IMG/VR virus record: IMGVR_UViG_3300015050_001523
Coordinates: 64,001-128,000 of that record
DNA: 64,000 bases
Direction: 5' to 3' (one strand)
DNA from: a virus
Taxonomy: Duplodnaviria > Caudoviricetes
In this document: positions 35,001 to 35,085 of the stretch, one piece after another
Numbering within the stretch: the first letter of the stretch is position 1
How the letters are laid out: each line of letters begins with the position of its first letter
The notes under the pieces: generated by a model
Databases searched by the model: none
What the model was told of the DNA's origin: nothing
Seen by the model: only the letters and a program-made list of their open reading frames with translations
Position numbers and translations under genes: made by a program

Positions 35001-35085
35001 TTTTGGAAATGTTTGATGAAAAACGAAAAACGAAAATAATGAAAACTTGAAAACCATTTCACAAGCTTTCCAAACATTTCCAAAA
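35001..35085 (-). ncRNA. stem-closed U-rich RNA element E1
   Basis: 15-bp terminal inverted repeat, inner AAA-TGG-TTT hairpin, (TTTTTCG)n tract; related to 51285-51378. Confidence 0.6.

Follow-up and report, generated by a model that had tools for sequence, protein, structure and literature searches.

That phage tRNA clusters conceal small stable RNAs, for example RNA C and RNA D of T4, has been recognized for 50 years. No role is known for either of these two stable RNAs (PMC3014915). Their genes, rnaC (species 1) and rnaD (species 2), lie behind tRNA-Arg, with rnaD 1 nt and rnaC 6 nt from their neighbours. Being packed 1-6 nt from adjacent genes, these RNAs are therefore released by the tRNA-processing machinery. 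The element described here, E, is a variant of this known kind, the small RNAs other than tRNAs that phages keep within their tRNA clusters, and no RNA catalogue lists it. It is present as two modules, E1 and E2, in the IMG/VR virus record IMGVR_UViG_3300015050_001523. This record has 322,518 bp and was judged to be 93% complete. The window, which is the whole stretch of 64,000 nt that was analysed, corresponds to its bases 64001-128000.

Like RNA C and RNA D, E is a small non-tRNA element in a T4-type tRNA cluster. It lies on the strand of the tRNAs, with gaps of 0 and 3-4 nt to its neighbours against the 1-6 nt of T4. However, there is no homology of sequence or structure between them, and rnaC has a tRNA-type T arm while E has no tRNA-like feature. 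It is TL1, a unit found near E1, and not E that resembles the folded rnaC of T4, with a T arm and a long hairpin. A covariance model built from the two copies of E (R2) was run with filters off on the T4 tRNA region. The best match had 12 bits (E-value = 0.37) and was not at rnaC or rnaD. The gap that separates tRNA-Ile from tRNA-Arg, which holds E2 in this phage, holds the homing endonuclease gene segB in T4 (PMC2330249).

Escherichia coli offers another comparison. Spacers (ITS) of its metZ-metW-metV (metZWV) transcript co-purify with the small RNAs (sRNAs) RybB and MicF (PMC4583644). The 3' external transcribed spacer (3'ETS) of glyW-cysT-leuZ is named as an sRNA sponge in the Mol Cell 2015 work cited by PMC4583644. 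These sponges arise as by-products when tRNA precursors are processed and act in trans on other RNAs with Hfq, and repeated spacers are similar to each other. E likewise lies in tRNA spacers, a likeness of position. The E. coli spacers are short, unstructured or weakly structured, and pair with known sRNAs, whereas E is a clamped hairpin in a phage.

The stems cut by RNase III in rRNA operons and at the R sites of the T7 early RNA are also comparable. There too, a long duplex is formed from the sequences that flank a unit in a polycistronic precursor. The duplexes of E have 15 and 16 perfect bp and a coaxial inner hairpin, an uninterrupted length of at least ~1.5 helical turns like that of RNase III sites. 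They differ in that a conserved loop of 55-62 nt is enclosed and not a functional gene, and in that they are shorter than the classical two-turn substrates. Finally, there are the Y RNAs, which are bound by Ro60. Recognition by Ro60 has been tied to the motif GNCGAAN0-1G near the 5' end, which is GGUCCGA in animals (Chen et al., 2014, PMC4201824). A second type of Y RNA with a pyrimidine-rich loop has been described as well (PMC4201824).

Structure and Kinship of E1 and E2

The phage is an uncultured, freshwater, T4-like jumbo phage. Its major capsid protein matched Pfam Gp23 with 199.6 bits. There are 37 tRNA genes in its genome, nearly all on the minus strand, and most are only 4-12 nt apart. 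E1 sits in a gap of 297 nt between tRNA-Gly(UCC) (35296-35367) and tRNA-Glu(UUC) (34926-34997). This gap folds as three self-contained units, TL1, TL2, and E1, each with its own terminal stem.

A first-pass annotation of this DNA had described E1 as a 15-bp stem that encloses an inner hairpin and a U-rich tract. All of these parts were recovered in place on the minus strand, where the nearby tRNA genes also lie (Table 1). The closing helix pairs 35085-35071 with 35015-35001 over 15 perfect bp, and the tract can be written as about four heptads, UUUUCAU-UAUUUUCG-UUUUUCG-UUUUUCAU. An objection raised in advance was that E1 might fold no better than shuffled controls. The minus strand was found to fold at -25.1 kcal/mol against -11.0 +/- 2.4 kcal/mol for the shuffles (z = -6.0), and 0 of 200 shuffles were as good. 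For the plus strand, the folding energy is -18.3 kcal/mol and z = -4.8. The hairpin can be extended to 35041-35070 through pairs that include G-U, and this extension is possible on the minus strand only. When the inner 55 nt are folded alone, the hairpin forms and ~25 nt are left unpaired. The predicted shape is thus a long and near-continuous hairpin, made of the clamp and the inner hairpin, with a large U-rich bulge on its 3' side.

Several familiar signals were looked for in both modules. Within E1 and E2 there is no terminator-like site and no promoter match on the minus strand. Neither ARAGORN nor the Rfam tRNA model called E as a tRNA, and a GTTCRA-type loop is absent. No Rfam family was found on E at the gathering threshold, nor at an E-value <= 10 in a search of 1 kb around E1.

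E2 was said by the first-pass annotation to have the same order and core as E1, with an unrelated closing stem that still pairs. This holds. The stem of E2 has 16 bp, and a covariance model made from E1 only matches E2 over its full length with 34.3 bits (E-value = 2.3e-5), with nothing else above noise in the window. With the two-copy model R2, E1 and E2 are the sole sites in the whole 322-kb genome. The minus strand of E2 folds at -25.3 kcal/mol (z = -5.25). Perfect stems of at least 15 bp around 35-95 nt number 4 in the genome, and 0.13 would be expected from local Markov shuffles.

The two of these long stems that do not belong to E have nothing in common with it. One of them was checked. 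It is a perfect 16-bp inverted repeat around 60 nt at 18211-18302, inside an open reading frame (ORF) of 241 aa at 17585-18310 (minus strand), and a similar repeat is found at positions 9475-9543 of the record.

MAFFT misaligned the closing arms, and the alignment of the two copies was made instead by fitting E2 to the E1-only model. It therefore leans towards the structure of E1. In this alignment, all 15 pairs of the closing helix are paired in both copies; 6 are identical and 9 are changed on both sides, so that the pairing is compensated. The closing helix is still supported by two checks despite the fitted alignment. When the 3' partners were slid by 1-3 columns, pairing fell to 27-55%, against 100% of cells in the true register. 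An independent run of RNAalifold recovered 13 helix pairs, of which 8 have double changes; it also gave an alternative inner pairing, of GUGAAA with a UUUCG heptad. The covariation-like evidence for an RNA structure that the first-pass annotation had seen thus stands in its pattern, with the limit that it comes from one sequence pair.

The interior of the modules behaves differently from the helix. Between E1 and E2, 43 of 55 aligned columns are identical (78%), and the local score is 42 against 16.2 +/- 2.7 in 1000 shuffles. Since the interior is 78% identical while the helix keeps 6 of 15 pairs, the loop sequence appears to be under selection and the helix would need only to pair. This is the main argument that the interior may be read in a sequence-specific manner. 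Taken as a family, E1 and E2 are on solid statistical grounds two real members, structured modules placed in the tRNA precursors of the phage. A possible link between the 5' arm of E2 and the flank of the paralogous tRNA-Ile#1 was rejected as not significant, with 395 of 1000 shuffles scoring as high.

Table 1. Positions of E1, E2, and neighbouring or related features (window coordinates unless a locus or the record is named).
Feature	Position	Strand	Remark
E1, whole module, 85 nt	35001-35085 (record 99001-99085)	-	98.5 bits with the two-copy covariance model R2
E1 closing helix, 5' arm, TTTTGGAAATGTTTG (listed also as UUUUGGAAAUGUUUG)	35071-35085	-	its first base follows the discriminator-like A of TL2 (35086)
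E1 linker, GAAAG	between 5' arm and hairpin	-	read from the sequence
E1 conserved hairpin, CTTGTGAAATGGTTTTCAAG (listed also as CUUGUGAAAUGGUUUUCAAG), 20 nt	35046-35065	-	core common with E2: UGAAA-N4-UUUCA
E1 U-rich tract, TTTTCATTATTTTCGTTTTTCGTTTTTCAT, 30 nt	35016-35045	-	single-stranded; ~7-nt periodicity
E1 closing helix, 3' arm, CAAACATTTCCAAAA (listed also as CAAACAUUUCCAAAA)	35001-35015	-	followed by AUU, then +1 of tRNA-Glu
E2, paralogous module, 94 nt	51285-51378 (record 115285-115378)	-	perfect 16-bp closing helix, 51363-51378 with 51285-51300
E2 hairpin, GUGAAA-AUGG-UUUCAC	51338-51353	-	core common with E1
E2 U-rich tract	51301-51337	-	UUUCUUG-UUCUUGG-UUUUUCG-CUUUUCAU
tRNA-Glu(UUC)	34926-34997	-	3 nt downstream of E1; RNase P cut at its 5' end would set the E1 3' end
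TL2, stem-closed tRNA-like unit	35087-35150	-	directly upstream of E1; cut at its 3' end would set the E1 5' end
tRNA-Ile(UAU) (tRNA-Ile#2)	51379-51452	-	no encoded CCA; discriminator at 51379, next base is the E2 start
tRNA-Arg(UCU)	51206-51280	-	4 nt (AUAU) downstream of E2
Sigma-70-like promoter, TTGACA-17-TATAGT with TG (extended -10)	35731-35759	-	11/12 matches; identified by consensus match only
Stem-closed modules in relatives	L087 10959-11028, 9842-9931, 12365-12456; L093 2291-2412; L070 10982-11075		flush with tRNAs

Proposed Release from tRNA Precursors and Competing Explanations

The position and strand of E fit an RNA rather than a DNA site. E1 follows the acceptor-like stem and single A of TL2 with a gap of 0 nt, and 3 nt (AUU) separate it from G+1 of tRNA-Glu at 34997. 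E2 follows the discriminator of tRNA-Ile (51379) with 0 nt and is 4 nt (AUAU) from G+1 of tRNA-Arg at 51280, as placed by the Rfam tRNA alignments. The tRNAs that border E1 and E2 encode no CCA, and an endonucleolytic cut at the discriminator would therefore be needed in any case. In the expected maturation, as for the CCA-less tRNAs of T4 and RNase BN/Z, an endonuclease cuts at the discriminator and RNase P cuts at +1. In E. coli, polycistronic tRNAs are separated by RNase P (PMC2190699). Because E is flush at both junctions, it is best read as a small RNA released from a tRNA precursor. The fuller proposal, that processing releases a small RNA in which a clamp helix displays a conserved U-rich recognition surface, is drawn from the DNA sequence; it is the leading reading, at somewhat under even odds, and is advanced tentatively.

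A course of transcription, cleavage, stabilization, and ligand binding can be proposed for this RNA. E1 and E2 would be transcribed on the minus strand within polycistronic tRNA precursors. The 5' side of E would be cut by an enzyme of the RNase Z/BN or RNase E type, or by RNase P acting on the helix, and the 3' side would be set by the RNase P cut at the downstream tRNA. Both cuts together would yield free E with a blunt 5' end and a 3' overhang of 3-4 nt on a helix of 15-16 bp. This terminal helix may clamp the ends, spare the folding of the neighbours, and block 3' exonucleases, so that the RNA accumulates. Its sequence would be free as long as pairing is kept. The payload would be the UGAAA/UUUCA hairpin stacked on the clamp, together with ~30 nt of U-rich heptads displayed as a 3'-side bulge.

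A/G-UUUUU-G is a type of sequence to which Hfq binds with its proximal face; S1 and KH domains bind U-rich single strands as well. The payload would most likely be recognized by a host protein that binds U-rich strands, such as Hfq, ribosomal protein S1, or PNPase through its KH/S1 domains. An alternative partner may be A-rich RNA around start codons, and the phage has many gene junctions of the AAAAUAAUGAAAA type, to which the U-rich tract is complementary. E RNA could then be a stable decoy or sponge. An Hfq/Rho/S1-type sponge, which the first-pass annotation had suggested, is compatible with the U-rich heptads. In its most specific form, E would represent a class of sponge RNAs cut from tRNA precursors by host enzymes and protected by the clamp, whose UUUUUCG heptads titrate Hfq, S1, PNPase, or A-rich mRNA start regions. 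This form of the proposal is doubtful and is considered improbable.

A number of observations weigh against release of a regulatory RNA. Nothing in the phage genome stood out as a convincing antisense target for the loop, since even the best matches, of 11-15 nt, do not exceed chance. The phage encodes neither Hfq nor RNase III, and any protein partner would therefore come from the host. The proposed ligand is thus a guess. The folding energy of E2 is nearly equal on the two strands (-23.0 kcal/mol on the plus and -24.5 kcal/mol on the minus strand). In both copies the closing helix is Watson-Crick paired throughout, free of G-U pairs and mismatches, which also fits its upkeep as a DNA palindrome. 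With only two copies in one genome, the covariation amounts to a single sequence pair, and searches of GenBank phages, T4, 38 related virus records, and 126 other loci, detailed in the next section, found no homologue outside this genome.

E might instead work in cis, as a spacer for processing or insulation. The helix would then be an RNase III-type site or a folding insulator, the U-rich bulge an entry point for RNase E, and the excised piece waste. Such a role agrees with the location inside tRNA precursors, flush with unit boundaries, with an unbroken duplex of 15-16 bp that carries a stacked hairpin, and with the established ability of RNase E to cut AU-rich single strands. Unrelated stem-closed spacers in the tRNA arrays of related phages also suggest a generic structural role. 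However, most tRNAs of this phage are 4-12 nt apart and need no such module, RNase III is not encoded by the phage, and a generic role leaves unexplained why the loop of ~55 nt is 78% identical when the helix shares 6 of 15 pairs. A purely cis-acting spacer is regarded as rather unlikely. An element that acts at the level of DNA and has no RNA function is improbable. Such an element might have arisen as an inserted palindrome or as a scar that recombination or homing left in the tRNA arrays, kept perfect by intrastrand templated repair, or might be a miniature mobile element. The two stems are perfect Watson-Crick palindromes without G-U pairs, the two strands of E2 fold about equally well, and the copies stand in different flanks, as though a unit had moved. 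In addition, T4-type tRNA clusters are targets of homing endonucleases (PMC2330249), and E2 fills the tRNA-Ile/tRNA-Arg gap that is the site of segB in T4. Against this, the boundaries of E coincide to the nucleotide with RNA-processing sites and with no DNA feature, and it is the interior that is conserved. The terminal repeats differ between the copies (6/15 shared), which is the opposite of ends recognized by a transposase. Neither copy is flanked by direct repeats or shows a target-site duplication, and the copy number is only two. A miniature inverted-repeat mobile element was rejected for these repeats, flanks, and copy number. The function could also lie on the plus strand, which would hold a micro-ORF or give an A-rich RNA antisense to the tRNA operon. 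On this strand, E2 has an ORF of 24 codons, MKSEKPRTRNASETIFTRVYSVIT, E1 begins in a similar way with MKNEKRK, and weak promoter-like matches occur. In E1, two stop codons come after codon 7, so that the ORF is not kept in both copies. A convincing ribosome-binding site is absent from both ORFs, the promoter matches (9/12) are at the level of shuffles, and minus-strand tRNAs enclose the module to the exact nucleotide. A plus-strand function is very improbable.

Since the first-pass annotation had likened E1 to Y RNAs, a Ro60 gene was searched for in the phage, and one is present. It encodes 533 aa (record 180146-181747, minus strand) and matches vWA_Ro60 with 55.2 bits and TROVE with 34.9 bits. 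A YrlA-like RNA adjoins it, full-length and sub-threshold at 35.7 bits, and served as a positive control. A pattern scan also identified seven scaffolds that start with UAGGAUG, at positions 180085-183875 of the record (minus strand), interspersed with the tRNAs of the main array. The YrlA match at 35.7 bits is one of the seven. In six scaffolds the end UUUUGCCUA falls inside the reach of the pattern, and the seventh, at 180085, shows its 5' end only. E could accordingly be imagined as a non-canonical Y RNA of the YrlB/Yrn2 kind, which is a long hairpin whose loop is rich in pyrimidines; as an extra ligand it would gate the phage Ro60 or tether it to another factor. In shape the resemblance is sound. 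Y RNAs have 80-130 nt, an end-to-end stem, and, in one type (PMC4201824), a pyrimidine-rich internal loop, and those of phages are also threaded through tRNA arrays. E1 and E2 have 85 and 94 nt, end-to-end stems of 15 and 16 bp, and internal loops of 55-62 nt that are rich in pyrimidines, and their genome, too, encodes Ro60. Membership in the Y RNAs did not stand. The Ro60-binding motif, already reported as not visible in E1, is absent from both copies, whose minus strands contain no CGAA at all. The pattern scan placed no UAGGAUG...UUUUGCCUA ends at E1 or E2, and the helix is perfect, without the bulge typical of Ro60 sites. The YrlA (RF02553) and YrlB (RF02565) models gave no match at an E-value <= 10 in 1 kb around E1. 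E1 is 81 kb and E2 65 kb from the Ro60 gene, while Y RNAs normally lie within a few kb of it. A Y-RNA identity is therefore judged quite unlikely, and a small RNA released from the tRNA precursors continues to be the preferred reading of E.

Related Phages and Surrounding Features

Relatives of E were sought in a range of collections. A blastn search with 1.1 kb around E1 against GenBank phages gave matches to tRNA-Ile only. The core pattern had 68 matches in a viral contig collection, none with the architecture of E or a tRNA context. A stricter pattern of hairpin plus heptads gave 2 identical loci in the viral contigs, with no tRNA link, and 26 matches in prokaryotic genome contigs, which are look-alikes only. 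The best of these 26, with 39 bits in the E model, is in a metagenome-assembled genome of Acidobacteria (L272 6730-6807, minus strand). It was rejected as a look-alike since it is a full heptad palindrome with no tRNA nearby. This palindrome is AT-rich in GC-rich surroundings, and its (TGGAAAA)n heptads face (TTTTTCG)n heptads.

The first-pass annotation had proposed that a covariance model of E1 and E2 be searched in phage records, and this search gave no members beyond the two. Related virus records (38) were chosen through a neighbouring protein and the major capsid protein. In these, R2 found nothing real, and three matches of 18.7 bits are false positives. It likewise found nothing in 100 loci from viral and metagenome relatives. 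The annotation had held that a lack of further homologs together with a lack of a transcript would speak against E as an RNA; on the side of homologs, none was found outside this genome, and on the side of a transcript, no RNA sequencing run that contains the sequence was listed. Contigs from four DNA sequencing runs were sparse and uninformative about E. The neighbouring protein, of 294 aa, has relatives in IMG/VR and metagenomes with 27-39% identity over most of its length, and up to 68% on short partial matches. Contigs with a capsid protein 60-87% identical are fragments. The small ORFs that flank E1 and E2 have no relatives in the viral contigs and no Pfam family.

The related jumbo phages do possess other long stem-closed modules that are flush with tRNAs. 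Some of these have G-U pairs, and their interiors are unrelated to E. The stem-closed design thus recurs in relatives, but the E sequence family is private to this phage so far. In one relative (L087 7786-12456), stem-closed modules, each 60-110 nt long with a helix of 14-21 bp, follow one another flush with tRNAs, and several have CCATAT...ATATGG ends. The same locus has a tmRNA at 8715-9113 that matches beta_tmRNA with 117 bits and also the permuted tmRNA model. A 364-kb relative (L070) has a group I intron at 10397-10632 (Rfam, 53 bits) near its stem-closed modules at 10982-11075 and 11249-11327. Among the related phages there are also tRNAs with a CUA anticodon, which ARAGORN labels 'Pyl' and which are probably amber suppressors. 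These are at L072 5642-5716, L077 1300-1374, L096 3896-3970 and 4403-4479, and L093 7923-8000. One tRNA of the related phages has a call with a four-base anticodon (ttgt).

The surroundings of E1 may indicate how it would be expressed. The sigma-70-like promoter lies ~40 nt upstream of tRNA-Ile#1, on the same strand as E1. It is likely, from its sequence, to be the start of a unit that consists of tRNA-Ile, an ORF of 75 aa, tRNA-Gly, TL1, TL2, E1, and tRNA-Glu. Its near-consensus form suggests that this unit of tRNAs, ORF, and noncoding RNAs may be transcribed early by the host polymerase. TL1 (35151-35294, minus strand) begins 1 nt past tRNA-Gly. Its acceptor stem is TCCTGTG/CGCAGGA and its T arm is GCTGG-TTCGAGT-CCAGT, while the D-loop carries an inserted hairpin of ~70 nt. 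TL1 is tRNA-like, yet was not called by ARAGORN or Rfam. TL2 has 64 nt, with an acceptor-like stem of 7-8 bp and a T-arm-like hairpin, GTCAG-CTCGTTA-CTGAC. Its fold is modestly better than that of shuffles (z = -2.1).

GC content is 31-38% over most of the window and 48% at its end. A small family of paralogous proteins with repeated YxNGxLHREDGPA motifs is encoded at 33091-33447 and 49791-50480 of the window, and at L098 10204-10560. These proteins account for many of the direct repeats of the region, and several of them begin with MKN.

Significance of E

The tRNA arrays of this jumbo phage appear from their sequences to carry at least three kinds of non-tRNA RNA, which are tRNA look-alikes, Y RNAs of the Ro60 type, and the E type. 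Of these, E has the simplest build, a generic clamp helix on which a conserved U-rich single strand would be displayed. Its practical value is limited for now, as the phage is uncultured and the family has two members. E is a clean test case for two ideas. The first is that tRNA precursors are used by phages as a system for the delivery and release of regulatory or decoy RNAs, and the second is that the design could be turned into a module for the expression of stable small RNAs. If E does act as a sponge, the RNA metabolism of the host would be rewired during infection, possibly beside the Ro60/Y-RNA system of the phage.

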